A stretch of 59,378 nucleotides of DNA from Deltaproteobacteria bacterium. GTDB taxonomy: Bacteria; Desulfobacterota; GWC2-55-46; DRME01. A program made the position numbers and the translations under genes. The DNA lies in NCBI GenBank assembly GCA_011375175.1, contig DRME01000074.1, positions 1-59,378 of the forward strand, written 5' to 3'. The notes below the pieces were generated by a model. The model ran no database searches, had not been told where the DNA came from, and saw nothing but the letters and a program-made list of their open reading frames with translations. This document shows, piece after piece, positions 43,814 to 59,378 of the stretch (the first letter of the stretch is position 1; each line of letters opens with the position of its first letter).

Positions 43814-44008
43814 ACCCCCCTCCTTTGCGGGACTTCGGTCATCAACTGAAATATACCATGGAGATGGGCTCAATGCAACGGCCTTGGGTCTGTCAAAGGG
43901 ATCGCCGCACGGGCGTTAGCGGTGGCTTTTCATGCGCCGATGTGGAATAATTATGGCAACGGCCCCGCGCCGGCGCGGGGGCCTCTTCAGGCGCAAAGGA
44001 GTTGACGA

Positions 44009-44425: not shown

Positions 44426-44616
44426 CTGAGGGAACCTTTTTGTAAAGGGTCACAGCCCCACGGTTCCCTCAGACTCCCTCCAAAGACTTTTAACGCGAGT
44501 TGGTTTCCCCCTGTTTTGCATAGCAAAACAGGGGGAAACCAACTCGTATTTAAAGTCTTTGAAGGGGGTCCGGGGGAAACGTGGGCCTGTGGCCCTTCTA
44601 CAGAAAGTTTCCCCCA
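44426..44616. repeat. Copy of modular palindromic repeat
   Basis: Near-identical to 13630-13803 modules: CAGACTCCCTCCAAAGACTTTTAACGCGAGTTGG..., GGGGGAAAC-26nt-GTTTCCCCC. Confidence 0.85.
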
Positions 44617-44689: not shown

Positions 44690-45871
44690 CTACTTTTTTT
44701 CCCTGCCCTTGCCGCCGCCCTTCATGGCCTTTATGAGTATGCGGGCCACCTCGGGCCTTGAGAACTCGGCGGGCGGCACTTCGCCCCTTGAGAGCATCTC
44801 CCTCACCTTCGTGCCCGAGAGCGATATGTGCTCGGACGAGTCGTGGGGACAGGACTTGAAAGACGCCATGCCGCCGCACTTGCCGCAGAAGAAGGTGTAG
44901 TCGAAGAACATGGGCGTTATCCCTATGGCCCCGGCGTCGAACTCGTCGAAGATGTAGTGGGCGTCGAAGCTGCCGTAGTAGCTGCCCACGCCGGCGTGGT
45001 CGCGGCCCACGATGAAGTGGGTGCATCCGTAGTTCTTCCTGATGAGGGCGTGGAAGACGGCCTCCCTCGGACCGGCGTAGCGCATGGCCGCCGGCAGCAC
45101 GACGAGCGCCACCCTGTCCTTTGGGAAGTAGTTGTCTATGAGGACCTTGTAACACTCCATGCGGACCGAGGCCGGTATGTCGTCGCTCTTGGTCTCGCCT
45201 ACGATTGGATGGATCATGAGGCCGTCGACCGTCTCGAGCGCGCACTTCTGTATGTACTCGTGGGCCCTGTGAATGGGGTTTCTCGTCTGGAAGCCCACGA
45301 CCCTGCGCCAGCCCTTCTCCCTGAAGAGCGCCCTCGTCTCGGCCGGGTCGAGGCGGTGTTCGTTGAACTCCCTGTAGGTGCGCCGGTGCAGCAGCGACAC
45401 CGGTCCGCCCAGGAGCATCTCCCCCATCTCATAGACCTTCTTCACCCCCGGGTGGGCGTCTTCGGCCGTACCGTAGACCTGTATGGCCTCCTTCTCCTTG
45501 TCGTGCGGGTATATCTCCTCGAGGTGGAGCACCGCAAGGAGCGCGTCCGAGCCGTCCACGAGGGCCACGTCCGAGCCCTCCTTGAGTCCGCGCGCCTCCT
45601 CGGCCTTGCATGAGAGCGTTACGGGGATGGTCCAGGGCAGGCCGTTGGAGAGGGTCATGGTGTCCATCGTCGAGTGGTAGTCGGCCCTGGTCATGAAGCC
45701 TTTGAGCGGGCTGAAGGCGCCGACGGCTATCATCTCGAGGTCCGATATCTCGCGCTCGTTGAGCCTTATCTTCGGCAGCCGCCCGGCCTTCTTCTCGAGC
45801 TCCTCGCGCTCCTTGCCCTCGACCACCCTGTTTACGAGCTCGCCCCCGTGGGGGGCTATCAGTTCCGGCAC
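44690..45871 (-). CDS. sat: Sulfate adenylyltransferase
   Basis: [59 protein letters not shown]; GTG start 45871. Confidence 0.95.
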
Positions 45872-46018
45872 TTCCTTACCTCCTCGGCGGGGAAGTCCCC
45901 GGGGACGCAACCCCCGACTTCCCGGGCAAAACGGTCATCACCGCCGGCGTCGCCCATCCTGACGGATGGGCGACGCCGGTCCTGTCCATGCGGCGGCGCG
46001 GCCCGCGGCCGCCCGCCG

Positions 46019-46723
46019 CTACTCGTCCTTGTGGAGCCCGCACTCGGTCTTTGCGTGGCCCGCCCAGCGGCCGGCCCTGGGGTCCTCGCCGGGCTTGACG
46101 GGCTGGGTACAGGGCTCGCAGCCGATGCTGGGGTAGTTGCGGTCGTGGAGCACGTTGTAGGGCACGTCGTTACTGCGGATGTACTCCCAGACCTGGGCCT
46201 CGGTCCACTTGACCAGCGGGTTGATCTTCACGAGGTTGAAGAGCGAGTCCCAGCCCACGATGGGGGCGTTGGCCCTTGTGGGCGACTGTTCGCGGCGGAT
46301 GCCCGTTATCCAGGCCGACAGCGTTCCCAGCGCCTCCTTGAGGGCCGATATCTTGCGTATCTGGCAGCACTTCTTGGGGTCGCGCTTCCAGAGCTCGGGG
46401 CCGTACTCCTTTTCCATCTCCTCAAGCGACATCCTGGAAGCGAAACGCTCGGCCTTGAGGCCGTACTTCTCGGCTATCCTGTCGCGCACGTCGTAGGTCT
46501 CCTTGAAGAGCAGCTCCGTGTCGAGGTAAAAGACCCTCGCATCGGGCCTTATCCTGAGCAGCATGTCCACCAGGGCCACGTCCTCGGGGCCGTAGCTGCA
46601 GGCGAGCGCCACGTTGGGGTGAAAGTTGTCGAGCGCCCACCGCAGGGCGTCCTCGGGCCCCTTGGAGTCGAGCTCTTCGTTGACCCTGCTCAGTTCCTCT
46701 TCGGTCCATACCTTTGCTGACAT
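46019..46723 (-). CDS. cysH: Thioredoxin-dependent APS reductase (CysH family, Fe-S type)
   Basis: LDTELLF, CC.IRK, WITGIRREQS, SIGCEPCT, KTECGLH; CC plus CxxC are the [4Fe-4S] ligands of APS-type enzymes. Confidence 0.9.
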   Translation of the reverse strand: MSAKVWTEEELSRVNEELDSKGPEDALRWALDNFHPNVALACSYGPEDVALVDMLLRIRPDARVFYLDTELLFKETYDVRDRIAEKYGLKAERFASRMSLEEMEKEYGPELWKRDPKKCCQIRKISALKEALGTLSAWITGIRREQSPTRANAPIVGWDSLFNLVKINPLVKWTEAQVWEYIRSNDVPYNVLHDRNYPSIGCEPCTQPVKPGEDPRAGRWAGHAKTECGLHKDE

Positions 46724-46847
46724 CTCTGCTACCTCCGTCCTTTTTTGTTGCTTTGTCCCTGCTCCGCCTCCACAGGTGGCGGGTCGTCGGAGACACCACC
46801 GGCCACATGGGCGCCGTTGCGGCGCAAAGCGTCGAAGCCACTTTCCC

Positions 46848-47312
46848 TTACTCGTCGAAGATCACGACCTCGCAGGGGGCCTTCTCCCTGAGCTCCTCGG
46901 AGAGCGAGGCCGAGAAGTAGCGCCTGAGGGTCTTGAGCTTCCTCCTTGCGACGACGGCCGTGGCGGCTCCGCTCTCCTCTATGACGCGCAGCACGGTGGG
47001 CAGGAAGTCCCCCTCCTCCATCCTCGCCTCGAAGGGAACGCCCCTTTTGCGGGCCGCCTCCCCGACCGCCGCGAGCCGCTCGCGGCCGCGCAGCCTGTAC
47101 TCGCGCATGACCGCCTCGGTGAGCTCCGCCGATGGCCTCTCGCCTATGAAGCCGATGTCGCTGAAGGTGTCGAATATGCCCTTGGCGATCTCCGACTCCA
47201 CGAGGAAGAGGGCGAGAAGGCGCGCTCCCTGGCGGGCGGCCCTCTCAACGGCGTAGTCGACGGCCCGCTGCGAGGACCTCGACGTGGTGAGCACGACGAG
47301 CACGGTCTCCAT
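46848..47312 (-). CDS. Universal stress protein
   Basis: VLVVLTTS.SS..AV.YA...A; EEG.F...V; L.EKAPCEVVI. Confidence 0.75.
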   Translation of the reverse strand: METVLVVLTTSRSSQRAVDYAVERAARQGARLLALFLVESEIAKGIFDTFSDIGFIGERPSAELTEAVMREYRLRGRERLAAVGEAARKRGVPFEARMEEGDFLPTVLRVIEESGAATAVVARRKLKTLRRYFSASLSEELREKAPCEVVIFDE

Positions 47313-47314
47313 CT

Positions 47315-48742
47315 TCAGCGTCCCCCGCCCACAAGCGGCCAGTAGAGGTTTGCGACCAGGTTGAAGAGCACCCAGGCCGACGCGCTCATGAGGATGCCTA
47401 TCTTCGCCATGTCACGCACCGTCACGTAGCTGCTCGACACGGCGATGGCGTTTGCCGGCGTGGAGAGCGGCAGCGTGAAGGCCAGCCCCGCGGGCACGGC
47501 CACGGCATAGGTGAGCGTTGCGGGCTCCATGCCGAAATTCTCGGCCATTCCGACGCTTATGGGCACGAGTATGGCGATTACGGCGGCGTTGCTTATCCCC
47601 TCGGTGAGCACCAGCGTCACGAGCGAGAAGAGGGCCACGACGGCCCAGGGCGCCTCGACCCACTCGCCGATGGTCCTGTCGGCGAGCCAGAGGGCCGCGC
47701 CGCTCTTCTCGAGCGAGGCCCCCAGTATGATGGCGCCGCCGTACATGAGGATGATCCCCCAGTTGACGTACTCCTCGATGTCCTTCCACCGCACGAGCCT
47801 CAGGGCGAAGAGCAGCACCACGGCCGTGAGGGCTATGTTGGCGAGACCGAGCGAGTGTCCCAGCGTCATCCAGACGACGACGGTGCCGGCCATGACGGCG
47901 CCGACGGCGTACTCGCGGTAGCTCACCTTGCCCATCTCGTATATGCGGCGGCCCAGCACCTCGCGGGCCTTCTCCACACTCTCTATGTCCATGGGAAAGG
48001 TCCTGGTGAGAACCAGATACCCAACGCCGAGCATGGCCGCCACGAGTGGGGCCACCGAGACGGTATAGGTGAGAAACCCTATCGTCTCACCGGTCGTCTC
48101 CTTGAGTATGCCGGCCGCAAGGGGCACCCTCGCCCCGCCGAGGAAGGTCGCCACCCCTCCTATGACGCACCCCCAGGCAAGGCTCAGAAAGAGCAGCTTT
48201 CCGTAATTGGACCTGCCGGGCCGCAGCTCCAGCCCCTTTGCTATCTCCAGCACTATGGGAAAGAGCATGGCCGCCACGCCGTGCTCGCTCATGAGGCACG
48301 AAAGCGAGGCGGCGAGCAGGAATATGCTCACCAGAAGCCGCCGCGGCGAGGCGCCGAACCTCTCCAGTATGGCCAGTGCCACCCTGTTGGAGAGCCCCGA
48401 CTGCATGACGGCCCCGGCGAGGATAAAGGCGCCGAGTATGAAGAAGACGGCCTCGTTGCCGAAGAGCGCGTAGGTCTGCTGGGTGCTCAGAACGTCCAGA
48501 AGGGGCACGAGCACTATGGCCAGTATGCTCGTTATGGCCAGCGGCACCACGTTGGAGACCCACAGCACCAGGCAGACCATGAATATGGCCATGGCCCGCT
48601 GGCCCTCGGGCGTGAGTCCCTGCGGGGTGGGCAGGCTGACAATATACCAGAAAAGGACGGCCAGCGCCAGAAAGAATAAGGGTCTGAGCCCCTTGAGGAC
48701 GAGGAGCAGCCATATGGACCGTCTGTCTATCTTTACAGCCAC
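47315..48742 (-). CDS. SLC13/DASS family anion transporter (possible sulfate uptake)
   Basis: VPLAITS, IGGVATFLGGARVP, TEGISNAA, AFTLPLSTPANAIA; many TM helices. Confidence 0.85.
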   Translation of the reverse strand: MAVKIDRRSIWLLLVLKGLRPLFFLALAVLFWYIVSLPTPQGLTPEGQRAMAIFMVCLVLWVSNVVPLAITSILAIVLVPLLDVLSTQQTYALFGNEAVFFILGAFILAGAVMQSGLSNRVALAILERFGASPRRLLVSIFLLAASLSCLMSEHGVAAMLFPIVLEIAKGLELRPGRSNYGKLLFLSLAWGCVIGGVATFLGGARVPLAAGILKETTGETIGFLTYTVSVAPLVAAMLGVGYLVLTRTFPMDIESVEKAREVLGRRIYEMGKVSYREYAVGAVMAGTVVVWMTLGHSLGLANIALTAVVLLFALRLVRWKDIEEYVNWGIILMYGGAIILGASLEKSGAALWLADRTIGEWVEAPWAVVALFSLVTLVLTEGISNAAVIAILVPISVGMAENFGMEPATLTYAVAVPAGLAFTLPLSTPANAIAVSSSYVTVRDMAKIGILMSASAWVLFNLVANLYWPLVGGGR

Positions 48743-48821
48743 GGGGCGACTCCACCTTACGGGTATGTCCTCGCGGCGCCGGGGCCGGAAGGGGGCGGAC
48801 CGGCGGCTGCGCCCTCTTCGC

Positions 48822-50048
48822 TCAATCCTTCTCCGTCGCGGCGCCGCCCGCCTCCTCGCCCGCCTCGTCCCTCACACGAAGTTTTCTTCGCAGCGTGGAG
48901 AGCCCCCATGCGGCCTTCATGCCGAGCCGCGTCTTGTAGAAGCCGCCGAATATGTCCTTGAAGCCGCTCTTCTCTCCGGCGAGCAGGGCCCCCTCCATGG
49001 GGGTGGTGACGACGCTGATGTCGCGCACCCAGTTCATGCTTATGTTGTTGCGCTTGACGGCCTCGTAGAGGTGTCTGTAAATGGGCACGATTATCTCGGC
49101 CGTAAGCGGCTCTATCCTCAGCGCCCTCTCGGGCGACGGCCTGTAGATCGGCAGGATTGGGACGACCCCCATGCCGGTCAGGAAGTCTATGCCCTGACAG
49201 GTGGAGCCCGGCATCTCAAGGCCCACGATGAGGTGCGAGGCCACGGTGCCGCTGGGGAAGATGCCGGCGGCGTAGCGCAGGGCCTCGATGTAGCGCTCGC
49301 GCCCTATGAGCTGCGCCCTCCCGGGGCATATCATCTCGAAGAGCTCCTTGTCGAAGATCTCGAGATTGTAGAGCACCGAGTCGGCTCCGGCCGCGTAGGT
49401 CTCGTCTATCCAGCGGTTGTCCCTGGGCGGCAGAGCCTCCACGGCGACGAGGCAGTGGAAGTGCTTCTTCACCGCCGTGATGTAAGGCCTCAGGAACTCA
49501 ATGCCCCCGTCGTCGCCGGAGCTGAAGCCGATGGAGAGGTAGATTATCTCCGATGCCCTCTCCTTGAGTATGGCCTCCACGGTCTCGACGACCTCGTCGA
49601 CTGTGTATACCCGGTCATCTCCGCCGTCTATATCGAAGTTGCCGGCGCAGTAGCGGCACTCGACGCTGCGGTTGAAGAACTCGCACCTCGGCGACGGCGT
49701 TATGACGGCGTAACGGCCGTGAGCCGTCGCTATCCTGGAGAAGGGCACGCCCGTTGAGGTGGAGCGCCCGTAGAACTCCGGCGGCCTGACCACCTCCACG
49801 TCGACCTCGCCGCTGTGGTCGACGATCCTGAACCCCCGGCCCCCGCTCGTGAGCAGGTAGGGCGACGCCCCGGTGAACTCCTCCCTGAAGGGGACGTTGA
49901 CGAGCGTTCCCCTGGGGAGCAAGAGGTCCAGACCGAGACTGTTGGCCGCCGCCTCTATCTCGGCGGCTATGGAGGGGTCGATCCTGATGCCGCGGAGCAT
50001 CAGGTCGATCTTCAGCGCGCCGGGATTATGGAGGTAACTCTTCTCCAT
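48822..50048 (-). CDS. Radical SAM protein with Cx8Cx2C motif (MSMEG_0568-like)
   Basis: CEFFNRSVECRYC; NLEIFD...F..ICPG, SHLIVGLE TIM-barrel motifs. Confidence 0.8.
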   Translation of the reverse strand: MEKSYLHNPGALKIDLMLRGIRIDPSIAAEIEAAANSLGLDLLLPRGTLVNVPFREEFTGASPYLLTSGGRGFRIVDHSGEVDVEVVRPPEFYGRSTSTGVPFSRIATAHGRYAVITPSPRCEFFNRSVECRYCAGNFDIDGGDDRVYTVDEVVETVEAILKERASEIIYLSIGFSSGDDGGIEFLRPYITAVKKHFHCLVAVEALPPRDNRWIDETYAAGADSVLYNLEIFDKELFEMICPGRAQLIGRERYIEALRYAAGIFPSGTVASHLIVGLEMPGSTCQGIDFLTGMGVVPILPIYRPSPERALRIEPLTAEIIVPIYRHLYEAVKRNNISMNWVRDISVVTTPMEGALLAGEKSGFKDIFGGFYKTRLGMKAAWGLSTLRRKLRVRDEAGEEAGGAATEKD

Positions 50049-50107
50049 CTATCCTTTATGGCGGGAAGAGGGGCGAGGCTCCCTGAGAGCCCCCTCAAAG
50101 CCCCCTT

Positions 50108-50929
50108 TCACGTCTCGCAGCGGGCCGCCTGGAGCTCGCAGCTCTGCTCGTATGTAACGAGCTCCTTTATGACGGCGTTCTCGCCGCAGAGGGCGCAGTT
50201 CGGGTCCTTCCCCACCCGCACCTTCCTGAAGCTCATCTTGAGGGCGTCGAATATCATGAGGTGACCGGCCAGGCTCTCGCCTATGCCGAGGACCTCCTTT
50301 ATGGCCTCCACGGCCTGGAGCACGCCTATGACACCGGCCAGCGCTCCGAGCACTCCGGCCTCCTGGCAGCTCGGCACGAGCCCCGGCGGCGGCGGCTCTG
50401 GGTAGAGGCACCGGTAACAGGGCCGGCCTTCATGGGGCTTGAATACCGTCACCTGCCCGTCGAAGCGGAACATGGAGCCCGACACCAGGGTCTTCTTCTC
50501 GAAGAAGGCGGCGTCGTTCATGAGGAAGCGGGTGGGGAAGTTGTCGCTTCCGTCGAGCACCACGTCGTAGTCGCGTATGACGGAGCGGATGTTGTCGGCC
50601 GTGAGGCGCTCGTTGTAGGCCACGACCTTGCAGTCCGGGTTTAGCCTCTCGATGGACTCCCTGGCCGAGAGGGCCTTGGGCCTGCCTATGTCCGAGGTGT
50701 CGTGGATTATCTGGCGCTGGAGGTTGCTCAGGTCCACGGCGTCGCCGTCGGCTATGCCGATGGTGCCCACGCCGGCGGCGGCCAGGTAGTAGAGGGCCGG
50801 CGAGCCGAGCCCTCCGGCGCCGAGCACGAAGACCTTGCTCTCCAGGAGCCTGGCCTGGCCCGTTCCGCCCACCTCGGGCAGGATTATGTGACGCGAATAA
50901 CGCTCTATCTGCTCTTCTGTGAAGTCCAT
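50108..50929 (-). CDS. moeB: MoeB/ThiF family sulfur-carrier adenylyltransferase (E1-like)
   Basis: RYSRHIILPEVG, GAGGLGS, SNLQRQ, DGSDNF.TR, CYRCLYP, SCQEAGVLG, CALCG. Confidence 0.92.
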   Translation of the reverse strand: MDFTEEQIERYSRHIILPEVGGTGQARLLESKVFVLGAGGLGSPALYYLAAAGVGTIGIADGDAVDLSNLQRQIIHDTSDIGRPKALSARESIERLNPDCKVVAYNERLTADNIRSVIRDYDVVLDGSDNFPTRFLMNDAAFFEKKTLVSGSMFRFDGQVTVFKPHEGRPCYRCLYPEPPPPGLVPSCQEAGVLGALAGVIGVLQAVEAIKEVLGIGESLAGHLMIFDALKMSFRKVRVGKDPNCALCGENAVIKELVTYEQSCELQAARCET

Positions 50930-50961
50930 GGCGCGATACCTCTTACTGTGGAAATTCCTAT

Positions 50962-51003
50962 GGAAGCTCTTGATTAATTACCCTGGGGGAAACTTTGTTT
51001 CCC
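50962..51003. repeat. Minimal repeat remnant (terminus plus short hairpin)
   Basis: GGAAGCTCTTGATTAATTACCCTGGGGGAAAC-TTT-GTTTCCC. Confidence 0.7.
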
Positions 51004-51006
51004 TAA

Positions 51007-51423
51007 TCATGCAATCTCCAGCGCCTCTTCGGCGAAGGGCTCGTCGGGCTCCTCGAAGCACCAGCTTCGCGCGCTCTCGACCCTGCCCCCGCGCACCGAG
51101 ACGATGAGGTACGAATACCAGGGCTGCCCCCTCTCCCTGTCGAAGCGCGAGGGCCTGTCGGCGTGGTCGGGATGGGAGTGGTAGAAGCCGAGCACGTCGA
51201 GACCTTCGGCCCTCGCCTCCTTGTCTATCCTGTTGAGGTCGGCCGGCGATATCTCGTAGCGGTCCCCGGCGCGCTCGGTGTTCCTGTTCTCCGTCCTCAC
51301 CACCCTCTCCACGACCTTGACCTCCGACGCCGTGCCCACGAGCACCCCGCAGCACTCGCGCGGATAGGCCGTGCGCGCGTGCGCCGTGAGCTCGTCGTAG
51401 AGCTCCCTCGTCATGCGGAGCAC
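51007..51423 (-). CDS. M67/JAMM metallopeptidase (Mec/HcyD-like)
   Basis: YPRECCG.L.G; GFYHSHPDH...PS.FD JAMM motif. Confidence 0.9.
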   Translation of the reverse strand: MLRMTRELYDELTAHARTAYPRECCGVLVGTASEVKVVERVVRTENRNTERAGDRYEISPADLNRIDKEARAEGLDVLGFYHSHPDHADRPSRFDRERGQPWYSYLIVSVRGGRVESARSWCFEEPDEPFAEEALEIA

Positions 51424-51424
51424 C

Positions 51425-52384
51425 TCAGGCGCCCTCCCAGAGCCTGGTGCTCAGGTACTTGTCGCCGCCGTCGGGAAAGATGACGACGATGAGCCCCTTC
51501 TCGATCCTCGAGGCGAGCCGCATCGCAGCCCACATGGCGGCGCCCGAGGACTGGCCGACGAGAAGGCCCTCTTCGCGGGCAAGGCGCTTGGCCATGTCGT
51601 AGGACTCCTCGGTCGGGGCCGCTATCTTGTCGTCGTGCTCCTCGGCGTGGTATATGCCGGGCACGATGGAAGAGGCCATGTGCTTGAGGCCCTCGAGCCC
51701 GTGGAGCGGGCTGTCGGGCTCTACGGCCACGACCTGGATATGGGGATTGTACTCCTTGAGCCTCCTGCCCGTGCCCATTATGGTGCCGCCCGTGCCTATG
51801 GAGGCGACCAGGTGGGTTATGCGCCCCTCGGTCTGCTCGAATATCTCCACGCCTGTGGTGTCGTAATGGGCCCTCGGGTTGGAGGGGTTGTTGTACTGGT
51901 CGAGCTTGCAGTACTTCTCCGGGTTGTCGACGTAGAGCTTCCAGGCGAGCCTTATGGCCCCGTCCGACCCCTCGAGCGGGCTCGAAAATACGACGTTGGC
52001 GCCGAAGGCGTGGAGTATCTTCTTGCGCTCCTCGCTCACGTTGGCCGGCACGACGAGCTCCACCCTGTAGCCCTTCACGGCCCCTATCCAGGCGTAGGCT
52101 ATGCCCGTGTTGCCCGAGGTGGAGTCGAGTATGACCTTATCCTTCGTCAGTATGCCGGCGGCCTCGGCGTCCTCTATCATGCGAAGCGCCGGCCGGTCCT
52201 TGACCGAGCCGCCGGGGTTGCAGCCCTCGAGCTTGGCGTATATCTCCACCTCGGCCGGAAGCTCGCGGGTAATACGGTTGATACGCACAAGCGGCGTATT
52301 ACCGACGAGCTCAACGGCCGATGACTTGACGCCGAGTCCCTGGGCCCTGAACGCGTGCATCCGCACCGCCTTCTCTCCACTCAT
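51425..52384 (-). CDS. cysM: PLP-dependent cysteine synthase (CysM-like)
   Basis: VGNTPLV, KLEGCNPGGSVKDR, STSGNTG, QYNNPSN, GTGGT, GQSSGAA; GGAGG before ATG 52384. Confidence 0.9.
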   Translation of the reverse strand: MSGEKAVRMHAFRAQGLGVKSSAVELVGNTPLVRINRITRELPAEVEIYAKLEGCNPGGSVKDRPALRMIEDAEAAGILTKDKVILDSTSGNTGIAYAWIGAVKGYRVELVVPANVSEERKKILHAFGANVVFSSPLEGSDGAIRLAWKLYVDNPEKYCKLDQYNNPSNPRAHYDTTGVEIFEQTEGRITHLVASIGTGGTIMGTGRRLKEYNPHIQVVAVEPDSPLHGLEGLKHMASSIVPGIYHAEEHDDKIAAPTEESYDMAKRLAREEGLLVGQSSGAAMWAAMRLASRIEKGLIVVIFPDGGDKYLSTRLWEGA

Positions 52385-52406
52385 TGTGCAAAACCTCCGT
52401 CGAGGG

Positions 52407-52517
52407 GGCTCATCCGTCGCTGAAAAAGACCCCCTAATGGAACTCAGGACCATCGAGCAGGTTGCATATCGCGTTGACGCGGCTCATCCGTCGCTGAAAA
52501 AGACCCCGTAATGGAAC
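52407..52517 (-). promoter_or_regulatory. Duplicated 37-nt leader motif with two short uORFs
   Basis: 52407-52443 and 52481-52517 differ at one base; uORFs 52434-52487 (MSRVNAICNLLDGPEFH) and 52381-52413 (MSPLDGGFAQ). Confidence 0.6.
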
Positions 52518-52523
52518 GGCACG

Positions 52524-52575
52524 CAATACCCTACTAAGCTTGTCAAGTTTACAATACCCTACTAAACTTGTCAAG
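52524..52575 (-). promoter_or_regulatory. Sigma70 promoter with tandem IscR/Rrf2-type operator sites
   Basis: CTTGACAAG(T/C)TTAGTAGGGTATTG twice, 28-nt period; TTGACA-N17-TAAACT; about 20/25 match by eye to the IscR type-1 consensus. Confidence 0.7.
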
Positions 52576-52713
52576 AAATTTAAGGACCTGTGTGCCTTTT
52601 TTTACGGGATCGGCCCGCAGGCCGGGACGCAGCGCAAGGGGCCGCGGACCGTAGGGGCGTGAGGGGAGGCGGCTGCGCAGGGCAGCCGCCGCAGGCACTC
52701 TCACCGCGGGGCC

Positions 52714-52950
52714 TCACTCGATGACGTCGAGCTCTATGGGTTCGACCTTGACGCCCTTGTCGATGAAGAAATCGATGGCCTTGTCTATCTCTTCGGGCTC
52801 GCCGTCGAACTCGAGGGCCACGAGTCCGAGGCTCGGAGAGACCGAGGCCTGGCGTATGTTGGTGACGACCCTGAAGCGACGTCCCACCTCGTAGATGAGG
52901 GGCTCCCGGATGCGCTCCTTGGGATATGTAAGGTAGACCCTCTTCTTCAA
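52714..52950 (-). CDS. Stand-alone NIL-domain protein
   Basis: RVYLTYP...IREPLIY...F.VV.NIRQASV...G.V.LE..G; TTG start overlaps the carrier stop codon. Confidence 0.8.
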   Translation of the reverse strand: MKKRVYLTYPKERIREPLIYEVGRRFRVVTNIRQASVSPSLGLVALEFDGEPEEIDKAIDFFIDKGVKVEPIELDVIE

Positions 52951-53228
52951 CGCACGCCTCCCGCTATGGCGGGGATGATGGAGAGTTCGTCGCCGTCGCT
53001 TGTCGGCGTGGAGAGGTTGTCCCTGAAGCGTATGTCCTCGTCGTTGATATATATGTTTATGAAGCGACGGAGGTTGCCGTCTTCGTCGCAGATGCGCTCC
53101 TTGAGACCGGGATGCCTCTTTTCGAGGTCCTCGATGACCTCCGAGACCGTGGCCCCCTCGGCCGTCACCTCGTCCTGGCCGCCCGTTATCTTCCTCAGGG
53201 GAGTCGGTATCCTCACCTTTACCGCCAT
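52947..53228 (-). CDS. MoaD/ThiS family sulfur carrier (CysO/HcyS-like)
   Basis: VRIPTPLR, RFINIYINDEDIR, IIPAIAGG-VR C-terminus. Confidence 0.92.
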   Translation of the reverse strand: MAVKVRIPTPLRKITGGQDEVTAEGATVSEVIEDLEKRHPGLKERICDEDGNLRRFINIYINDEDIRFRDNLSTPTSDGDELSIIPAIAGGVR

Positions 53229-53316
53229 CTGTATGCACCTCCTGTGTTTTGTAGACGGCTACTCCGTCCCGCCGCCCCCCGCCGCCCCCGGCGCCGCCGC
53301 GGCCGCGGGGACGGGG

Positions 53317-55770
53317 TCATACCGCCTTCTTGACGAGAAGCTCGTAATGGTCGCCGGTCTTCTCCATGCGCAGGATCTCCTGGCCGTCGTTTCTCAGGCT
53401 CGAGGGGACGTTCCTTATGGGCTCGCCCTCGTCGAGGTAGAGCAGGAGTTCCTCGCCCTTTTTCATGGTCTCGAGCTTGATCTTGGCCTTCACGTAGTTT
53501 ATGGGGCACTTCACGCCGCGAAGGTCCATAAGCACGGGCCCGGCGCCCCCTTCGTCCTCCGCGCCGCCGGGGGCCTGCCGGCTCTCCGGGGCCGGGGCTT
53601 CGCCCTCCCCGCCCTTCTCCCCCTCTATCCTCTCGAGCCTGAAGTGGAAGAAGTCGTCCATCGACGAGTAGAGGGCCTTGACGCGGTCCAGCATGGCCTC
53701 GATGCGGCCCAGGTACTCATCGAGCCCCCGCTCGTTGAGCAAGCGCGACGAGAGGAGTTCGGCCGTCCTGTCAAGCCCCGCGAAGCGCTCCGGGACGAGC
53801 CCCCGGCCTATGAACTTGGACTCGAAGTGGTCTACGGCCTCCTCGTCCGAGGCGGTCTCTATGCCCTGTGTTATGAGCAGCGCCTTGCACGTGGCCACAA
53901 GGCCCCTGTAGGCGGCCTCCGACGCCTCTTCGAGACGGCCCTGCGCGAGCGCCCGCCGCGCCCCGGCCAGCGAGCCTTCGGCCTCCTCTATGTCCACGTC
54001 TATTATGTCGAAGACACCGGCGCCGCACTCGCCGGGACCGAGACCGGCCAGCGAGAACTCCTCGTCCACGCCCCAGTCCGTGTACATCTGCGGGGCCTCG
54101 TCATGGGGCGGCATGGTCGAGTACCGCTCGACGAGCTCCCTCACAACGGCCCTGCCGCCGCCGTCGAGGTAGTCGTGGAAGCCGCCCTCCCCCCTCTCGG
54201 CGGCGTAGCGGCCGAGCAGCTCGGTGACGAAGGCCGGTATCCTCTTCGCCGGCACGAAGCCGTAGGTCTCGGCAAGCCTCGTCTTGCCGGCCTCGACCCT
54301 GCCTCCGGCAAGCACCTCGTAGTGGGGGGCGAGCCGCCCGTCGCCTCTCTTGGCCGCGCCGTAGAGGCCTATCGCCCCTACGGGGTGCTGGCCGCAGGCG
54401 TTGGGGCAGCCGCTTATCTTTATGTCCACGTCGAGGGAGCCGAGATCGAGTCCGCCGCCGCAAAGCTCCCTGGTGAGCTCGGCCGCCATGTTCCTTGAGA
54501 GGCATATGCCCAGGTTGCACGTCGACGCGCCGGGACAGCAGAGTACGTCGTCGATGCGGCCGGCGCCCGCGCGGCCGAGGCCGAGTTCGGCGAGCGCGGC
54601 GAAGAGGGGCCTGAGCTCCTCCTCGCGCAGCCAGCGGATCATGAGGTTCTGGTCGTGGCCGGTGCGGAGCGTGCCCTCGCCGAAGCGCTCGACCACGTCG
54701 GCAAGACGCCTGAGGACGGGGGCCTCGATGTCGCCGAGTTCGAGCCTTATGCGGGCGTAGTGGAAGCCGGGCTGCTTCTGCTCCCTCACGTTGGAGGCGC
54801 GCCAGAGCTCAAAGCCCCGCTCGTCGAAACCGGCCGGCGGCTCGCCGGCCTCGACCGCGCCAACGTCACGAAGCCGCGGGACGGGCCGCAGCGCCATGGG
54901 CCTGGGGCCGCTGCTTCGCACCGCATCGAGCTCCCGGCGGTAGAGGTCGAGGAACTTCCGCTCGCCGTACTTCTCGATTACGAAGCGAAGGCGCGCCTTG
55001 TGCTTGTTGCGCCTGTTGCCGTGCTTGTCGAAGAGGTTCATGACCGCCTCGGCCACGGCGAGGGCCTGGTCGGCCGGTATGAACTCCTCGATGAGTGTTG
55101 CCGGACGCGACCACGCGCCCATCCCGCCGGCGGCCCACACCTGGAAGCCCTCTTCGGCGGCACCGCCGCGCCCGCGCCTCACGGCCACGAAGCCCACGTC
55201 GTTTATGGTCGCCAGGGCGCAGTCCTCGGCGCAGCCGGAAAAGGCTATCTTGTACTTCCTGGGCAGGCTGTAGGCGCTGGGGTGCGTCAGCAGCGCCTCG
55301 GTGACGGCCACGGCGTAGGGGGCCACGTCGAAAGACTCGCGGGGACAGACGCCCGACTCTGGACAGGCCGTCACGTTTCTGAGGGTGTTGCCCCCGCCGC
55401 CGCGTGTGGATAGACCCACCTCGGCAAGCGACCTCATGGCCTTGACCGTGTCCTCGAGCACCACGCGGTGGAGCTGCACGTCCTGGCGGGTCGTCACATG
55501 GGGTATGCCGTTGCCGTACCGCTCCGAGAGGTCGGCTATGCGGCGCATCTGTTCGGGAAGCAGTCCGCCCGCCGGGACCCTGATCCTCATCATGTGGGTC
55601 GTCTGGCCCCGCTGGGCGTATACGCCCCTCGTGACGCGGAAAGGCTTGAAGCGCTCGCGCGATATCTCGCCGCGCAGGACCTTCTCCACCTCGGCGGCGT
55701 AGACGTCGATGTCGTCGATGATCTCCTGCGGTATCTCGTAGAAACTCTTCGCCTGCTTTACATCACTCAT
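53317..55770 (-). CDS. sir: Siroheme sulfite/nitrite reductase fused to HEPN-like and TusA/SirA domains
   Basis: GVYAQR, HVTTRQDVQLH, LPRKYKIAFSGC, ISGCPNACGQH; C-terminal MDLRGVKCPINYVKAKIKLE. Confidence 0.88.
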   Translation of the reverse strand: MSDVKQAKSFYEIPQEIIDDIDVYAAEVEKVLRGEISRERFKPFRVTRGVYAQRGQTTHMMRIRVPAGGLLPEQMRRIADLSERYGNGIPHVTTRQDVQLHRVVLEDTVKAMRSLAEVGLSTRGGGGNTLRNVTACPESGVCPRESFDVAPYAVAVTEALLTHPSAYSLPRKYKIAFSGCAEDCALATINDVGFVAVRRGRGGAAEEGFQVWAAGGMGAWSRPATLIEEFIPADQALAVAEAVMNLFDKHGNRRNKHKARLRFVIEKYGERKFLDLYRRELDAVRSSGPRPMALRPVPRLRDVGAVEAGEPPAGFDERGFELWRASNVREQKQPGFHYARIRLELGDIEAPVLRRLADVVERFGEGTLRTGHDQNLMIRWLREEELRPLFAALAELGLGRAGAGRIDDVLCCPGASTCNLGICLSRNMAAELTRELCGGGLDLGSLDVDIKISGCPNACGQHPVGAIGLYGAAKRGDGRLAPHYEVLAGGRVEAGKTRLAETYGFVPAKRIPAFVTELLGRYAAERGEGGFHDYLDGGGRAVVRELVERYSTMPPHDEAPQMYTDWGVDEEFSLAGLGPGECGAGVFDIIDVDIEEAEGSLAGARRALAQGRLEEASEAAYRGLVATCKALLITQGIETASDEEAVDHFESKFIGRGLVPERFAGLDRTAELLSSRLLNERGLDEYLGRIEAMLDRVKALYSSMDDFFHFRLERIEGEKGGEGEAPAPESRQAPGGAEDEGGAGPVLMDLRGVKCPINYVKAKIKLETMKKGEELLLYLDEGEPIRNVPSSLRNDGQEILRMEKTGDHYELLVKKAV

Positions 55771-56004
55771 TATCTCTTCAACTCCCGATAGGAGAACTGC
55801 CCAGCCGGTGCCTCTCTATCAAGGGACCGTCCGGGCGCGGACGCCCCTGCTGGCGGAAAACAAGCCGTGAGGCATCCTCCTGCCCCACCTGCCCCTCTGT
55901 CCCCCTGTCTCCCTGTCCGCTCCAGCGGCGAAGGTGCGGGCCGTGGCCGCCACTGCGGAGGTCCCCCGCAACAAACCTCTCCGCGCGGGCGGCGGCCCGG
56001 CGCC

Positions 56005-57258
56005 TCAGAGGGCGCAGCTCTTCCGGCCCTTGACGAGGGCGTCGAACTCCTTGAGGCTTGCGTTTATGACCGGTGTCTCGCCGAGCTTGCCGTAGAGGGC
56101 CTCCTGTGTCTTGAGGCCGTTGCCCGTTATGGAGACGACGATGGACTCGTTTCGCGGGATACGGCCCTGTTCGAGGAGCTTTTTCGTAACGCCCAGCGTT
56201 ACGCCTCCGGCCGTCTCGGCGAAGATGCCCTCGGTCTCGGCCAGCAGTCTTATGGCGTCTATTATCTCTTCGTCGCTCACGTCCTCGCCCCAGCCGCCGC
56301 TCTCGCGCATGGTCCTGGCCGAGTAGTAACCGTCGGCCGGGTTGCCTATGGCGAGGCTCTTGGCTATGGTGTCGGGCCGCACCGGCCTTATGAGCTCCGA
56401 GCCTTCCTTCACGGCCGTCACTATGGGGGCGCACCCGGTGGCCTGGGCGCCGTAGATCTTCGAGTCCAGCGGCCCATCGACGAGCCCCAGCCTGTGGAAC
56501 TCCTTGAAGGACTTCCATACCTTGGTTATGAGCGAGCCTCCGGCCATGGGCACGACCACGTGCTTCGGCAGCCTCCAGCCGAGCTGCTCGACGATCTCGT
56601 AGCCGAAGGCCTTGGAGCCCTCGGCGTAGTAGGGCCTTATGTTTATGTTGACGAAGGCCCAGCCGTACTTGCCCGCTATCTCGCTGCACAGACGGTTGAC
56701 CTCGTCGTAGGTGCCCCTGATGCGCACCATGTTGCAGCCGTAGACGAGGGTGCCGAGTATCTTGGTGGGCTCCAGGTCGTGGGGGATGAAGACGTAGTTC
56801 TCGAGGCCCGCCGCCGAGGCGTTGGCGGCCACCGAGTTTGCGAGGTTGCCGGTGGAGGCGCAGCTCACCACGTCGAAGCCCAGCTCCACAGCCTTCGATA
56901 TGGCCACCGAGACGACCCGGTCCTTGAAGGAGAGGGTCGGGTAGTTGACGGCGTCGTTCTTTATGTAGAGCTCGTCAACGCCGAGGGCCTCTTCGAGGTT
57001 GCGGGCCCTCACAAGGGGGGTGAAGCCCACCTGTGCGCCCACGGTTGGCTCTCCGTCAAGGGGCAGGAGCTCACGGTAGCGCCACATGTTCGCCGGCCTC
57101 GACTCTATGACCCGGCGGCTCAGCGCCTTCGCTATCTCTTCGTATTCGTAGACGACCTCGAGCGGGCCGAAGCAGAACTCGCAGACATGGAGCGCCTCTT
57201 TGGGGTACTCCTTGCCGCACTCCCTGCACTTTAGCGCCTTCACGTAACTCATCTCCAT
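56005..57258 (-). CDS. Threonine synthase-like PLP enzyme with N-terminal zinc ribbon
   Basis: CRECG...CEFC, SFKDR, CASTGNLA, PMAGGSL, AIGNPADG, ITGNGLK. Function may not be threonine synthesis (see findings). Confidence 0.85.
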   Translation of the reverse strand: MEMSYVKALKCRECGKEYPKEALHVCEFCFGPLEVVYEYEEIAKALSRRVIESRPANMWRYRELLPLDGEPTVGAQVGFTPLVRARNLEEALGVDELYIKNDAVNYPTLSFKDRVVSVAISKAVELGFDVVSCASTGNLANSVAANASAAGLENYVFIPHDLEPTKILGTLVYGCNMVRIRGTYDEVNRLCSEIAGKYGWAFVNINIRPYYAEGSKAFGYEIVEQLGWRLPKHVVVPMAGGSLITKVWKSFKEFHRLGLVDGPLDSKIYGAQATGCAPIVTAVKEGSELIRPVRPDTIAKSLAIGNPADGYYSARTMRESGGWGEDVSDEEIIDAIRLLAETEGIFAETAGGVTLGVTKKLLEQGRIPRNESIVVSITGNGLKTQEALYGKLGETPVINASLKEFDALVKGRKSCAL

Positions 57259-57294
57259 TCCCCCCTTGCTTGAAAAAACTCTTTTTCGGCGGCC

Positions 57295-57330
57295 AAAAAA
57301 AAACCTCTTCTTTTGAAGCTAAGAAGAGGT
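57295..57330 (-). terminator. Intrinsic terminator of the SAM-I expression platform
   Basis: ACCTCTTCTT-loop-AAGAAGAGGT followed by a long U tract on the minus strand. Confidence 0.85.
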
Positions 57331-57340
57331 ACGAGACCTT

Positions 57341-57513
57341 TTCTTATCTTCCAAGGTCCTCCTCGGCCTGCCGGGGCCCGAGGCGCCATTCGCCCCCCGG
57401 CAGACCCCGGCCGGGACGTGGCGGACCTTGCTGGAATTAGCACCTGTCACCCCCGAAGAGGCCGGTTGCTGTGGCTTCACAGGGCCAGTTCCCTCTGCCA
57501 CTCTTGATAAGAA
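57341..57513 (-). ncRNA. SAM-I (S-box) riboswitch
   Basis: TTCTTATCAAGAGTGGCAGAGGGAACTGGCCCTGTGAAGCCACAGCAACC...GGTGCTAATTCC...GGAAGATAAGAA; the 3' strand of P1 can pair with the terminator 5' arm as an antiterminator. Confidence 0.95.
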
Positions 57514-57539: not shown

Positions 57540-57567
57540 TATATAATATGAAAACGGCCGAATGTCA
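57540..57567 (-). promoter_or_regulatory. Sigma70 promoter upstream of the S-box
   Basis: TTGACA-N17-TATATA on the minus strand. Confidence 0.6.
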
Positions 57568-57803
57568 AGACAATAATGGACGGTCTCTGCGACAAAAAAG
57601 CTGCGTGGGCTCCCGGCTCCTGTCCGGCCGGCCGAAACCGGAAGGCGGCGCACCCGCCCAGGCTCCGCCGCCGACACCGCAACGGTGGTGACTGCGGTCA
57701 CATACGGGGCGCTGTGCTTTCAATATACTGTAAGTACGATCTATGGGGCTCGGAGCGCATCGGCCGGAGGCGGCCCGCGGCTCTACTTGTGAGACAACTC
57801 TTC

Positions 57804-57831
57804 TTGACAGACGCTACCCTGACGATAAAAT
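57804..57831 (+). promoter_or_regulatory. Sigma70 promoter for the beta-helix gene
   Basis: TTGACA-N16-TAAAAT. Confidence 0.5.
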
Positions 57832-57892
57832 ACATGGTAAGATACGACGCATCTAAAGTCGAACCGGAAGAGAGGAACGGAAGGTGGACAAG

Positions 57893-59378
57893 ATGAGCAG
57901 AAGCAGAGTAAAAACCCTGTTGGCGGTGATTTGCATCCTGCTGGCCGCTCCTTACACGGCGGCGGCGGCCACATATTACGTCTCGCCCAATGGAAGCGAC
58001 TCCAACGACGGCCTCAGCACGAAAACCCCGTGGGGGACCCTCGTCCATGCCACAAAAAAGATGTCCGGCGGCGATACCCTCATTCTGATGGACGGAATAT
58101 ACACCTCCAACTGCAAAGACTATTCAAACTGCGAAAATCAACTCATCCCACCAAGTGGGAGCCCTGGTAATTATACAGTCATAAAGGCTCAGAATGACTG
58201 GAAAGCCGTCATAGATGGCAGTGGATTTCCCCTCTGGCGCTACCCCATCCACATCAAAAACGGATCTTATATACAAATAGAAGGACTAAAATTGGTGGAC
58301 GGCGGCGGTATGACCGCTGTCATGGTAGAGCGTTCCAGCTACATAAAGCTAATGCGACTCTCCATAACAAACGGGGTTCCTTACAATGCCCAATGGGGCA
58401 ATGTGCTTTCTATCGCCAACGCGAGCCACCACATACTTGTTGAAGACACGTGGATCAGCGGTGCCATGAGATACGGTGTCCTTGTCATCGGCGATAACGA
58501 CGGACCGGTCTCCTCTACAACTTATAAGGTTATTCTGAGGAGGGTCGTTGTCAGGTTCGACTATATAGACAGCGTTGAGCCAAAAGCGGCAATTGCATTT
58601 TACGGTGCCGACAAGGCATCAAACGGCATGGTCAGAGACAGTATGTGCCAAAACTGTATAGTGATAGATACGAATCCCGCCAACTCCTACAAGAACTTCT
58701 ATGGCGCATACTACAACCCCAAGATAACGGAGAACATAAAATACTACGGTTCCATAGCCCTTAACATCAAGGCCTCCGGCTTGGAGTTCGGTTCACCCTA
58801 CGATGCCGCAGGCTTTTACGTAACCGACAACTATTCGCTATCCAAGGGACATGAGTTGCATAACGTTGTGGCGTGGGATGTAGCTGGTGTAGGTATTCGT
58901 TTCGATCAGGGCGATTCAAGCGGAAGCGGCATTGTCAATCAAAGTACGGTTGGGTACTCTACTTATGGTGTAATGGATACGGCAAAACTGCCAGTTACGC
59001 TTCAGAACAGCATCATTTACAACAATGCAAAACCAAACGCAGGAGTGGACATATCAAAATACAACACTTATGTCCCCCCTTCCCACGCAGAAGGGAGCAA
59101 CTACAAGACAACCGATCCGGGGTTGCGCTATCTTGTCAGAACAACCGATACAGGTACAGGTTTGAACGGAATGAAGATAGGCGCCGACATCGAAAAACGC
59201 TACGGCGTCTCCGGCACCCTGTGGGACGAGCCCGGCTATGACCAGCTTACAAACGTTCCGCTCTGGCCGTGGCCCTACGAAGACCAGATTAAAAAAGACT
59301 TTTCGGCCTCCAACGTTCCGCCGCTCGGGGCCTATCCTCCCACAAACGACACGAAGAGGGGCTTCTGCGCGCCCGGAA
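57893..59378 (+). CDS. Secreted right-handed beta-helix protein (pectate lyase/DUF1565-like), runs off the right edge
   Basis: Hand translation is open from ATG 57893 to the window end: signal peptide, ATYYVSPNGSDSNDG...PW.TL..A...GDTLILMDGIY. Confidence 0.8.
   Translation, partial: MSRSRVKTLLAVICILLAAPYTAAAATYYVSPNGSDSNDGLSTKTPWGTLVHATKKMSGGDTLILMDGIYTSNCKDYSNCENQLIPPSGSPGNYTVIKAQNDWKAVIDGSGFPLWRYPIHIKNGSYIQIEGLKLVDGGGMTAVMVERSSYIKLMRLSITNGVPYNAQWGNVLSIANASHHILVEDTWISGAMRYGVLVIGDNDGPVSSTTYKVILRRVVVRFDYIDSVEPKAAIAFYGADKASNGMVRDSMCQNCIVIDTNPANSYKNFYGAYYNPKITENIKYYGSIALNIKASGLEFGSPYDAAGFYVTDNYSLSKGHELHNVVAWDVAGVGIRFDQGDSSGSGIVNQSTVGYSTYGVMDTAKLPVTLQNSIIYNNAKPNAGVDISKYNTYVPPSHAEGSNYKTTDPGLRYLVRTTDTGTGLNGMKIGADIEKRYGVSGTLWDEPGYDQLTNVPLWPWPYEDQIKKDFSASNVPPLGAYPPTNDTKRGFCAPG

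Follow-up and report, generated by a model that had tools for sequence, protein, structure and literature searches.

A deltaproteobacterial sulfur assimilation cluster in which one ubiquitin-like carrier may serve both cysteine and homocysteine synthesis

Gene content and conservation of the cluster

We analyzed contig DRME01000074.1 of the Deltaproteobacteria bacterium assembly GCA_011375175.1, the whole of which (59,378 bp, 65% G+C) is referred to here as the window, and found in it a cluster of sulfur genes grouped around a single gene for a ubiquitin-like sulfur carrier of the CysO/MetO family. All of the cluster genes are on the minus strand, and the ends of the cluster are exact, with the sat stop codon at 44690 and the 5' end of a SAM-I (S-adenosylmethionine) riboswitch at 57513 (Table 1). 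In the order of transcription, the riboswitch aptamer is followed by genes for a ThrC-like enzyme of the pyridoxal 5'-phosphate (PLP)-dependent class, a sulfite reductase (Sir) with a fused TusA domain, the carrier, a NIL-domain protein, the cysteine synthase CysM, a JAMM protease, the E1 enzyme MoeB, a radical SAM protein, a DASS permease, a universal stress protein (Usp), CysH, and Sat. Domains of the cluster proteins were called with Pfam and NCBIfam. Every gene listed in the original prediction, which had been made from the sequence alone, was found on the minus strand with matching ends, and the cluster was essentially right as an observation; the TusA domain on Sir and the universal stress protein gene had been overlooked in that list. 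A 20-bp hairpin between sat and the convergent fxsA gene is probably the end of the operon.

The gene neighborhoods of related loci were surveyed using the best 80 of 495 genomic loci encoding relatives of the ThrC-like protein (65 to 83% identical), and all twelve window proteins were mapped onto these 80 loci, to which designations such as L001 and L057 refer below. The set is the one closest to the ThrC-like protein and is not unbiased. Relatives of the window were derived from groundwater, sediment, and hydrothermal-vent metagenomes and were labeled Deltaproteobacteria or Thermodesulfobacteriota. The full gene order, as far as cysH or sat, was kept in approximately 11 loci from metagenome-assembled genomes (MAGs) labeled "Deltaproteobacteria," and parts of it were present in approximately 60 loci, which demonstrates that the arrangement did not arise by chance. 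Among loci with enough downstream sequence, the carrier gene lay downstream of the ThrC-like gene in 69 of 70 and a NIL domain was present in 58 of 67. Genes further downstream were counted in the 46 loci with at least 6 kb of sequence on that side, where a cysteine synthase homologue was present in 41, an E1 (MoeB) in 40, Sir or TusA in 35, the radical SAM protein in 35, and the permease in 32. Co-occurrence in related genomes had been set beforehand as a test of the cluster, and within this sample of closest relatives the genes did co-occur.

Two variants of the arrangement were informative. In Zetaproteobacteria (Mariprofundus and relatives), the order was ThrC-like enzyme, carrier, NIL, a CysK-type enzyme, MoeB, Sir-TusA, radical SAM protein, permease, and cysH. 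In L057, L071, and L076, the genes for the ThrC-like enzyme, CysM, JAMM, a carrier-NIL fusion, and MoeB formed one tight operon with a single carrier, so that cysM and the JAMM gene sat between the ThrC-like gene and the carrier.

Table 1. Features of the sulfur cluster, in the direction of transcription
Feature	Position	Strand	Details and basis
Likely sigma-70 promoter of the S-box leader	57540..57568	-	TTGACA, 17 nt, TATATA; read by eye, missed by the promoter scan (last -10 base is A)
SAM-I riboswitch aptamer (S box)	57420..57513	-	Rfam RF00162, 54 bits (gathering threshold 44.4), E 1e-9, all 108 model positions
Intrinsic terminator	57295..57330	-	10-bp stem and T9 (hairpin with T9 at 57330..57303), 90 nt downstream of the aptamer
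ThrC-like PLP enzyme	56005..57258	-	N-terminal four-cysteine zinc ribbon; PALP E 3e-68; thrC models
Weak terminator-like hairpin	55867..55888	-	Within the 235 nt that separate the ThrC-like gene from sir; structure scan
NirA-type siroheme sulfite reductase	53317..55770	-	Two halves, helical linker, C-terminal TusA; NIR_SIR and NIR_SIR_ferr twice each
TusA sulfur-transfer domain	53326..53526	-	Residues 749-815 of Sir; Pfam TusA E 6e-16; Cys755 in KCPINY
CysO/MetO-family ubiquitin-like sulfur carrier	52947..53228	-	93 aa, ends ...AIAGGVR (GG-VR); ThiS family E 2e-19
NIL-domain protein, stand-alone	52714..52950	-	78 aa; NIL E 1e-13; collection gene call P0121 identical
cysM promoter with two 24-nt direct-repeat boxes	52524..52575	-	TTGACA, 17 nt, TAAACT (52574..52546); boxes 52575..52552 and 52547..52524
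Two 46-nt direct repeats, cysM 5' leader	52398..52443 and 52472..52517	-	91% identity at a distance of 74 nt; hairpin potential in each
CysM, B-type cysteine synthase	51425..52384	-	319 aa from ATG behind GGAGG; TIGR01138 cysM 386 bits
JAMM/MPN+ metalloprotease (Mec/HcyD-like)	51007..51423	-	Prok-JAB E 1e-27; HxHx7SxxD motif read directly
MoeB/ThiF-type E1 adenylyltransferase	50108..50929	-	273 aa, two CxxC pairs; ThiF E 3e-83; MoeB, MoeZ, UbaA models
Radical SAM protein	48822..50048	-	NF045502 176 bits; present in 35 of 46 loci
DASS/SLC13-type permease	47315..48742	-	Na_sulph_symp E 1e-59
Universal stress protein family gene	46848..47312	-	Usp E 1.5e-15
CysH, Fe-S type APS reductase	46019..46723	-	TIGR02055 242.6 bits (cutoff 235.3)
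Sat, sulfate adenylyltransferase	44690..45910	-	NF003166 580 bits
20-bp hairpin	44499..44543	.	Between sat and convergent fxsA; probable operon end

The carrier and its two candidate acceptor enzymes

The ThrC-like enzyme has a threonine synthase fold, which was supported by matches to ThrC structures in the PDB (E 3e-58) as well as by the PALP and thrC models. Approximately 55 residues at its N terminus are missing from the solved ThrC proteins. The gene call in the collection is 415 aa long, and we infer that it starts at the second ATG, at 57252. When the protein was used as a query, the matches listed included only close MAG relatives, all of them named threonine synthase. A link to actinomycetes was provided by a tblastn search of a plasmid collection that includes a Nonomuraea chromosome. 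In Nonomuraea gerenzanensis, an S box is followed by a ThrC-like gene, the product of which is 54% identical to that of the window and carries the same N-terminal four-cysteine ribbon, and then by a gene for a 91-aa carrier ending in GG. A haloarchaeal thrC product that is 39% identical matched from query residue 1, and no carrier adjoins its gene, indicating that the carrier-linked ThrC-like proteins form a distinct subset.

A function for such an enzyme has been described in Streptomyces albulus. As summarized by GapMind 2026, MetM (Hasebe et al. 2024) is a threonine synthase homologue, "often misannotated" as threonine synthase, that combines O-phosphohomoserine with the thiocarboxylate of its carrier, MetO, to form homocysteine, with Mec as the protease, which is needed for MetO maturation, and MoeZ as the E1 (bioRxiv 10.1101/2024.10.14.618325). 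A second source places a SAM riboswitch upstream of S. albulus metM and metO next to it, and reports a carrier-adjacent cyanobacterial homologue that is 51.6% identical to MetM (PMC12172450). For orthology to the S. albulus proteins, the 54% identity to the Nonomuraea protein, which lies in the same S-box and carrier layout, served as a proxy. From this similarity and the gene context, it is very probable that the window's ThrC-like enzyme is a MetM-type homocysteine synthase acting on O-phosphohomoserine and a carrier thiocarboxylate. The original prediction had drawn its parallel for the homocysteine branch with HcyS of Wolinella; the Streptomyces MetM/MetO pair is the closer one, the Wolinella enzyme being MetY. 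The zinc ribbon was also considered as a marker of MetM proteins and was rejected because the haloarchaeal thrC product without a carrier, to judge from its match starting at query residue 1, probably has this N-terminal region as well.

The best PDB match of the carrier was CysO of Amycolatopsis orientalis (4n6e_B, E 9e-28), and CysO of Mycobacterium tuberculosis was also matched (3dwg_C, E 2e-25). The window carrier is 56% identical to the former, 53% identical to the latter, and 53% identical to the Nonomuraea MetO-like carrier, and those three are 49 to 63% identical to one another. These near-equal identities to carriers of the CysO and MetO-like kinds mean that its role is not assignable from sequence. 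A search of all six frames of the window with a hidden Markov model (HMM) built from the carriers and CysO sequences detected no second open reading frame (ORF) of the CysO/MetO family, and the same HMM detected no extra CysO-like ORF within 10 kb of the cluster in approximately 11 syntenic relatives. In nearly all of the unfused carriers of related loci, one to three residues follow the GG.

To characterize CysM, the sequence of the M. tuberculosis enzyme, checked against PDB entry 3dwg_A (100% identity), was aligned with those of the window CysM and its paralogues from the surveyed loci. The window protein contains GSVKDRP, with the PLP lysine, and, in place of the GPHKIQGIGAGF segment of CysK, the same 6-7-residue loop deletion as M. 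tuberculosis CysM, whereas the CysM paralogues of other loci (40 to 47% identical) carry the CysK loop GPHKIQGIGAGF. The position aligned with Arg220 of the M. tuberculosis enzyme is Lys in the window protein and in all B-type relatives (GLEGLKHM versus GVYALRNM). Arg220 reportedly selects O-phosphoserine. The substrates of M. tuberculosis CysM are O-phosphoserine and the thiocarboxylate of CysO (PMC12910592).

The two genes downstream of cysM encode further candidate partners of the carrier. The JAMM gene abuts the cysM stop codon in the window; a JAMM gene followed a B-type cysM in 15 of 18 loci and was present in 21 loci altogether. The end of the carrier gene lies approximately 0.56 kb upstream of the cysM start. 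MoeB consists of a ThiF domain only, without a rhodanese domain, and matched the MoeZ model over positions 15-275 of 392.

Taken together, the layout of the cluster and these similarities make it moderately likely, in our view, that one CysO/MetO-family carrier serves both CysM and the ThrC-like enzyme, in a merged MetM/MetO and CysM/Mec/E1 system fed by its own sulfate reduction genes. The idea of a single shared carrier came from the original prediction, and its context held up, with one carrier gene, two PLP enzymes of carrier-using types, and the compact operons of L057, L071, and L076; sharing is probable from this context and was not universal among the related loci.

Sulfur delivery, the NIL domain, and regulation

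Sulfate assimilation is encoded at the downstream end of the cluster. The DASS permease is a probable sulfate importer. CysH contains the CC...CxxC cysteine pairs and ECGLH, as read from its sequence, and this Fe-S CysH would act on adenosine 5'-phosphosulfate (APS), so that no APS kinase would be needed. The universal stress protein gene was kept between the sulfate permease gene and cysH in approximately 15 related loci.

The PDB relatives of Sir include NirA of M. tuberculosis (1zj8, E 5e-36). Both halves of the window enzyme have a complete CX5C...CX3C siroheme/[4Fe-4S] motif (C136/142/180/184 and C412/418/455/459); to our knowledge, NirA/CysI-type enzymes have this motif in the C-terminal half only. 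In the fused TusA domain, the second Pro of the classic CPxP motif is Asn (KCPINY). TusA always adjoined or was fused to Sir, whichever type of Sir was present, and was fused to a NirA-type enzyme in the window and in Zetaproteobacteria. Since MoeB lacks a rhodanese domain, TusA is a candidate sulfur donor to the adenylated carrier. The closest relatives of the window (L001, 11326-12515, with equivalents in L002-L025, L049, and L055) encode instead a 322-aa AsrC/DsrA-like reductase with a two-cluster ferredoxin insert and a separate TusA of approximately 90 aa. The NirA-type Sir of the window resembles the zetaproteobacterial enzyme (30 to 33% identity), and its difference in type from the Sir of the closest relatives looks like a gene replacement.

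The radical SAM protein belongs to a narrow family, with 205 relatives at E < 1e-10, in which an invariant C122-x8-C131-x2-C134 motif replaces the usual CX3CX2C. Contigs of 2.5 to 3.0 Mb from near-complete relatives encode this protein and the NIL protein as well. The PDB, searched by sequence with the radical SAM protein, gave no match. Its predicted structure (mean predicted local distance difference test [pLDDT] score 78.6) matched lipoyl synthase best, followed by PylB, NifB, and BioB, at the level of the common barrel only. It has a beta-rich N-terminal domain of approximately 115 residues, and in two phyla its gene is found together with those for Sir/TusA and the permease.

The NIL domain is known from MetN, the ATPase of the methionine importer, as the C-terminal C2 domain, which binds methionine. 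Its other known setting is MA1822, a NIL-ferredoxin protein that belongs to the DUF39 pathway to homocysteine (PMC5764234). The window NIL protein matched the MetN C2 domain in the PDB weakly (E 0.045). Its TTG start overlaps the TGA stop of the carrier gene, an arrangement in which NIL would be translationally coupled to the carrier and might act as its partner or cap. In eight loci, carrier and NIL were one ORF of 171 to 177 aa, in which ...IIPAIAGG is followed by a Lys-rich linker of 6 to 12 residues and then by NIL; Pfam detected both ThiS and NIL on two of these eight fusions, those of L057 and L016. Because the terminal Gly must be exposed for adenylation, such fusions must be cut after GG. 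No link between a carrier of this kind and NIL was found in the literature searched. The NIL/C2 domain of MetN binds methionine, and by analogy NIL may link use of the carrier to how much methionine is present.

These features also allow a more speculative scheme, to which we give only a modest chance: a closed relay that spares free sulfide, in which TusA takes sulfur at Sir and passes it to the adenylated carrier, a rhodanese-less E1 is thereby sufficient, NIL is a cleavable or detachable C-terminal cap through which methionine gates carrier activation or the choice between cysteine and homocysteine, and the radical SAM protein performs a further step. As part of this tentative scheme, the carrier-GG-linker-NIL protein of the eight relatives would be a proprotein requiring cleavage by JAMM. 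If true, the cap would give NIL a new role and would add a new mode of regulation for a ubiquitin-like protein of prokaryotes.

The SAM-I riboswitch of the original prediction was borne out, with an Rfam score above the gathering threshold and a terminator downstream (Table 1), and of the 20 related loci scanned, 15 had an S box ahead of their ThrC-like gene. Riboswitch control is certain for the ThrC-like gene only. It is doubtful whether the riboswitch also governs sir and the carrier gene, as was further claimed, given the 235-nt gap that follows the ThrC-like gene, the weak terminator-like hairpin in it, and a likely internal promoter in relatives. The promoter scan gave no sigma-70-like match in the gap of the window. 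At this place relatives have a T-run and then an extended -10 element (TGnTATCAT-like) 60 to 90 nt before the sir start, and in L001 it has a terminator-like hairpin and a scored promoter; from these sequences, relatives likely carry an internal promoter before sir.

Of the two boxes over the cysM promoter, one lies in the promoter spacer and the other just past the -10 element. The pair recurred with a 28-nt repeat spacing and the consensus CTTGACAAnnnTACTAAGGTATTATAAACTTGAnAAGnnTACTAAGGTATT in most of the 13 related loci inspected; the boxes are lacking in L011 and have a 34-nt spacing in L024. Elsewhere in the window the motif occurred at chance level only. From its position and conservation, the tandem box looks like a repressor site. 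An exact match to the box in L023 was discarded, as it lies inside an unrelated ORF. An Rrf2-type operator had been predicted for this unit, and of this the conserved tandem box over the cysM promoter stood. No Rrf2 gene was detected in the window by tblastn or by Pfam on the parts scanned (the first ~11 kb and several intergene gaps, such as 11.7-14.0 kb, were outside the Pfam scan), and the link to Rrf2 is an analogy with L057, in which TTTAGTAGGATATT, a near-identical version of the conserved box TTAGTAGG(G/A)TATT, immediately precedes an Rrf2 gene heading the equivalent operon. Rrf2 genes flank the cluster in eight loci. With the riboswitch certain for the ThrC-like gene only and Rrf2 inferred, the proposed split of carrier control between SAM and Rrf2 is not established. 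Between the boxes and cysM, one position in the two 46-nt leader repeats changes on both sides of the stem, and the repeats were not found in related loci. A riboswitch in this leader was considered and rejected: a permissive Rfam search gave a chance-level hit to M23 sRNA (E 0.79), and the folding z-score was 0.38. No RNA-seq runs containing the window sequence were found; two vent metagenomes share 8% of its words.

Outside the cluster, a divergent gene on the plus strand (57857-59377) encodes a secreted protein, the N terminus of which resembles a signal peptide, and runs off the contig end; this stretch has a lower G+C content at third codon positions (0.60 versus about 0.87), and a strong promoter match precedes it at 57804-57831. 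The region from 28500 to 43900, which is unrelated to the sulfur cluster, encodes large tetratricopeptide repeat (TPR)/beta-helix proteins, GNA1162-like lipoproteins, and CsgG-like, FlgT-N-like, and SLH-domain proteins, and probably specifies an outer-envelope or secretion assembly.

A shared carrier, competing readings, and known systems

In the pathway that we propose, the products of two adjacent minus-strand transcription units would suffice, around one carrier, to take sulfate all the way to cysteine and homocysteine. The DASS permease would import sulfate, Sat would convert it to APS, and the Fe-S CysH would produce sulfite, which the NirA-type Sir would reduce; Cys755 of the fused TusA domain would take the reduced sulfur as persulfide or sulfide. 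JAMM would trim the carrier from ...GG-VR to ...GG, and MoeB would adenylate the terminal Gly. Since MoeB has no rhodanese domain, the sulfur that gives the carrier thiocarboxylate would be delivered by Sir-TusA or as free sulfide. CysM, probably with O-phosphoserine as in M. tuberculosis, would then form a carrier-cysteine adduct to be hydrolyzed by JAMM, and the ThrC-like, MetM-type enzyme would form homocysteine from O-phosphohomoserine and the carrier thiocarboxylate. SAM would shut off the MetM-type gene by transcription termination, and a repressor that may belong to the Rrf2 family and have its gene elsewhere would act at the two cysM-promoter boxes to control the cysteine branch, the E1, and sulfate reduction.

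Several observations weigh against this pathway or against its generality. The C-terminal tail of M. tuberculosis CysM (about residues 305-323) is missing from the window protein, which ends approximately 15 residues earlier, and the best PDB matches of the window CysM are ordinary O-acetylserine sulfhydrylases, with 247 bits versus 202 for M. tuberculosis CysM. Because these ordinary enzymes outscore it, carrier dependence of the window CysM rests mainly on its linkage to JAMM. No JAMM gene was found within 10 kb of the zetaproteobacterial clusters (L029-L075), the carriers of which have a single residue (Cys, Lys, or Arg) after GG. The usual cargo of TusA is persulfide sulfur, and Sir makes sulfide, which leaves the chemistry of a hand-over speculative. 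If sir and the carrier gene were cotranscribed with the riboswitch gene, high SAM would starve CysM, which is awkward unless there is an internal promoter, and in the window none was detected. Five loci (L016, L018, L019, L058, and L072) have an additional module encoding a 66-aa ThiS-type carrier, a CysK-type enzyme, and MoeB; the presence of two carriers and two E1s in some loci shows that sharing is not universal. The 59-kb contig was the whole search space, and a second carrier, cysE/cysK, metX/metY, or a canonical thrC may lie elsewhere. Streptomyces is also said to keep a CysO separate from its methionine carrier. In GapMind, MetO of Streptomyces is listed as a dedicated carrier (bioRxiv 10.1101/2024.10.14.618325).

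Where it occurs, the additional module lies upstream of the ThrC-like gene (3314-5437 in L016 and 7794-9911 in L018), and its ThiS-type carrier ends in GGG and is followed by the CysK-type enzyme and a second MoeB. In L064 (8300-9765), ThiS is fused in frame to a CysK-type enzyme, giving a protein of 373 aa.

The main competing explanation is that the carrier is used for homocysteine only and that CysM is an ordinary sulfhydrylase acting on free sulfide from Sir, with JAMM maturing the carrier (GG-VR or GG-NIL) and perhaps freeing carrier-homocysteine; JAMM would then lie beside cysM only because both belong to a sulfur assimilation operon. This is a real possibility, if a distinctly smaller one than a shared carrier. 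It is consistent with the conventional CysK/CysM enzymes being the closest solved relatives of CysM and with the lack of the M. tuberculosis tail, with the zetaproteobacterial pairing of the carrier with a CysK-type enzyme and no JAMM, and with the need for Mec in MetO maturation given by GapMind (bioRxiv 10.1101/2024.10.14.618325). It is opposed by the recurrence, in 15 of 18 loci, of JAMM after a B-type CysM with the M. tuberculosis-like loop deletion, the two genes abutting in the window, and by the position of cysM and JAMM between the ThrC-like gene and the carrier in the L057, L071, and L076 operons. The annotated stretches of the window, which begin after the first ~11 kb, also contained no serine acetyltransferase gene.

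We consider it improbable that both branches depend on carriers but that a second carrier dedicated to CysM is encoded elsewhere in the genome, the apparent sharing being an artifact of a single 59-kb contig. The ThiS-CysK-MoeB modules and the ThiS-CysK fusion in six related loci would fit this explanation, as would the dedicated status of MetO in Streptomyces mentioned above. Conversely, neither the window nor the approximately 11 syntenic relatives, within 10 kb of the cluster, yielded a second CysO-like ORF, and the window cluster has one E1, whereas the two-carrier loci have two E1 genes. Least credible by far is that the ThrC-like protein is a housekeeping threonine synthase and that the cluster makes only cysteine through the carrier: every source annotates the protein as threonine synthase, it passes the TIGR00260 thrC model, and haloarchaeal thrC genes whose products appear to share its N-terminal region have no carrier next to them, but an off-switch at high SAM, present in 15 of 20 loci, would be senseless for a threonine synthase, 69 of 70 loci have the carrier adjacent, the actinomycete homologue is arranged like the characterized MetM/MetO pair, and MetM is itself routinely misannotated in this way according to GapMind (bioRxiv 10.1101/2024.10.14.618325).

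If one carrier does feed both enzymes, uncultured Thermodesulfobacteriota have merged two protein-thiocarboxylate pathways, known so far separately and from actinomycetes, into one module leading from sulfate to amino acids, and related clusters around the same carrier and enzyme are also present in Zetaproteobacteria, anammox bacteria, and other lineages. Genome-based predictions would then wrongly call cysteine or methionine auxotrophy, since annotations uniformly name the key enzyme threonine synthase. The layout also provides a handle on how sulfur passes from Sir to a carrier with a rhodanese-less E1, for which TusA is the candidate, and on the recurrence of NIL in homocysteine synthesis. 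Experiments would be most worthwhile on the NIL fusion and on the link between Sir and TusA.

The cluster extends two known pathways and is not a new pathway; each of its core components has a characterized relative, and none implies categorically new chemistry. With the MetM/MetO system of S. albulus it has in common a threonine synthase homologue near a MoaD-like carrier and behind a SAM riboswitch, as well as a JAMM protease (Mec) and an E1. It differs in that the window pair is embedded among genes for Sir-TusA, NIL, CysM, JAMM, a rhodanese-less E1, the radical SAM protein, and sulfate assimilation, and in that sir-tusA lies between the ThrC-like gene and the carrier. The Nonomuraea locus, unlike the window, lacks NIL, and no residue follows the GG of its carrier.

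A precedent for one CysO-type carrier with two acceptor enzymes is found in A. orientalis (PDB 4n6e), whose CysO is the best PDB match of the window carrier; the second use there is in secondary metabolism and not in the synthesis of a second proteinogenic amino acid. The A. orientalis CysO is reportedly used by the thiosugar synthase BexX, with one E1 and promiscuous carriers. In Wolinella succinogenes, one cluster reportedly encodes a carrier with a C-terminal extension past its GG together with a sulfite reductase, an E1, and a JAMM protease, and sulfur is supplied by sulfite reduction, and the window likewise holds a carrier extension past GG, JAMM, an E1, and a sulfite reductase in one cluster. 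The homocysteine-forming enzyme of Wolinella is said to be MetY, an O-acetylhomoserine sulfhydrylase of a fold different from that of ThrC, and we know of no report of TusA, NIL, or CysM in that pathway. Compared with the Wolinella HcyS/HcyD/HcyF/MetY system, the window cluster holds no gene of the Cys/Met-metabolism PLP fold, and its enzyme has the ThrC fold.

The window NIL belongs to the same Pfam domain as those of MetN C2 and MA1822, the known contexts of which are methionine or homocysteine, but it occurs as a stand-alone protein of 78 aa or as a carrier extension, without a ferredoxin or ATPase domain. Finally, the cysteine branch shares with the CysO/CysM/Mec/MoeZ system of M. tuberculosis (PMC12910592, PDB 3dwg) a carrier that is 53% identical, the loop deletion of B-type CysM, and a JAMM gene adjoining cysM, and the Lys aligned with Arg220 is likewise basic, whereas in the window the E1 is without the MoeZ rhodanese domain, CysM is without the tail, and the carrier gene lies in the neighboring operon, near the MetM-type gene rather than cysM.

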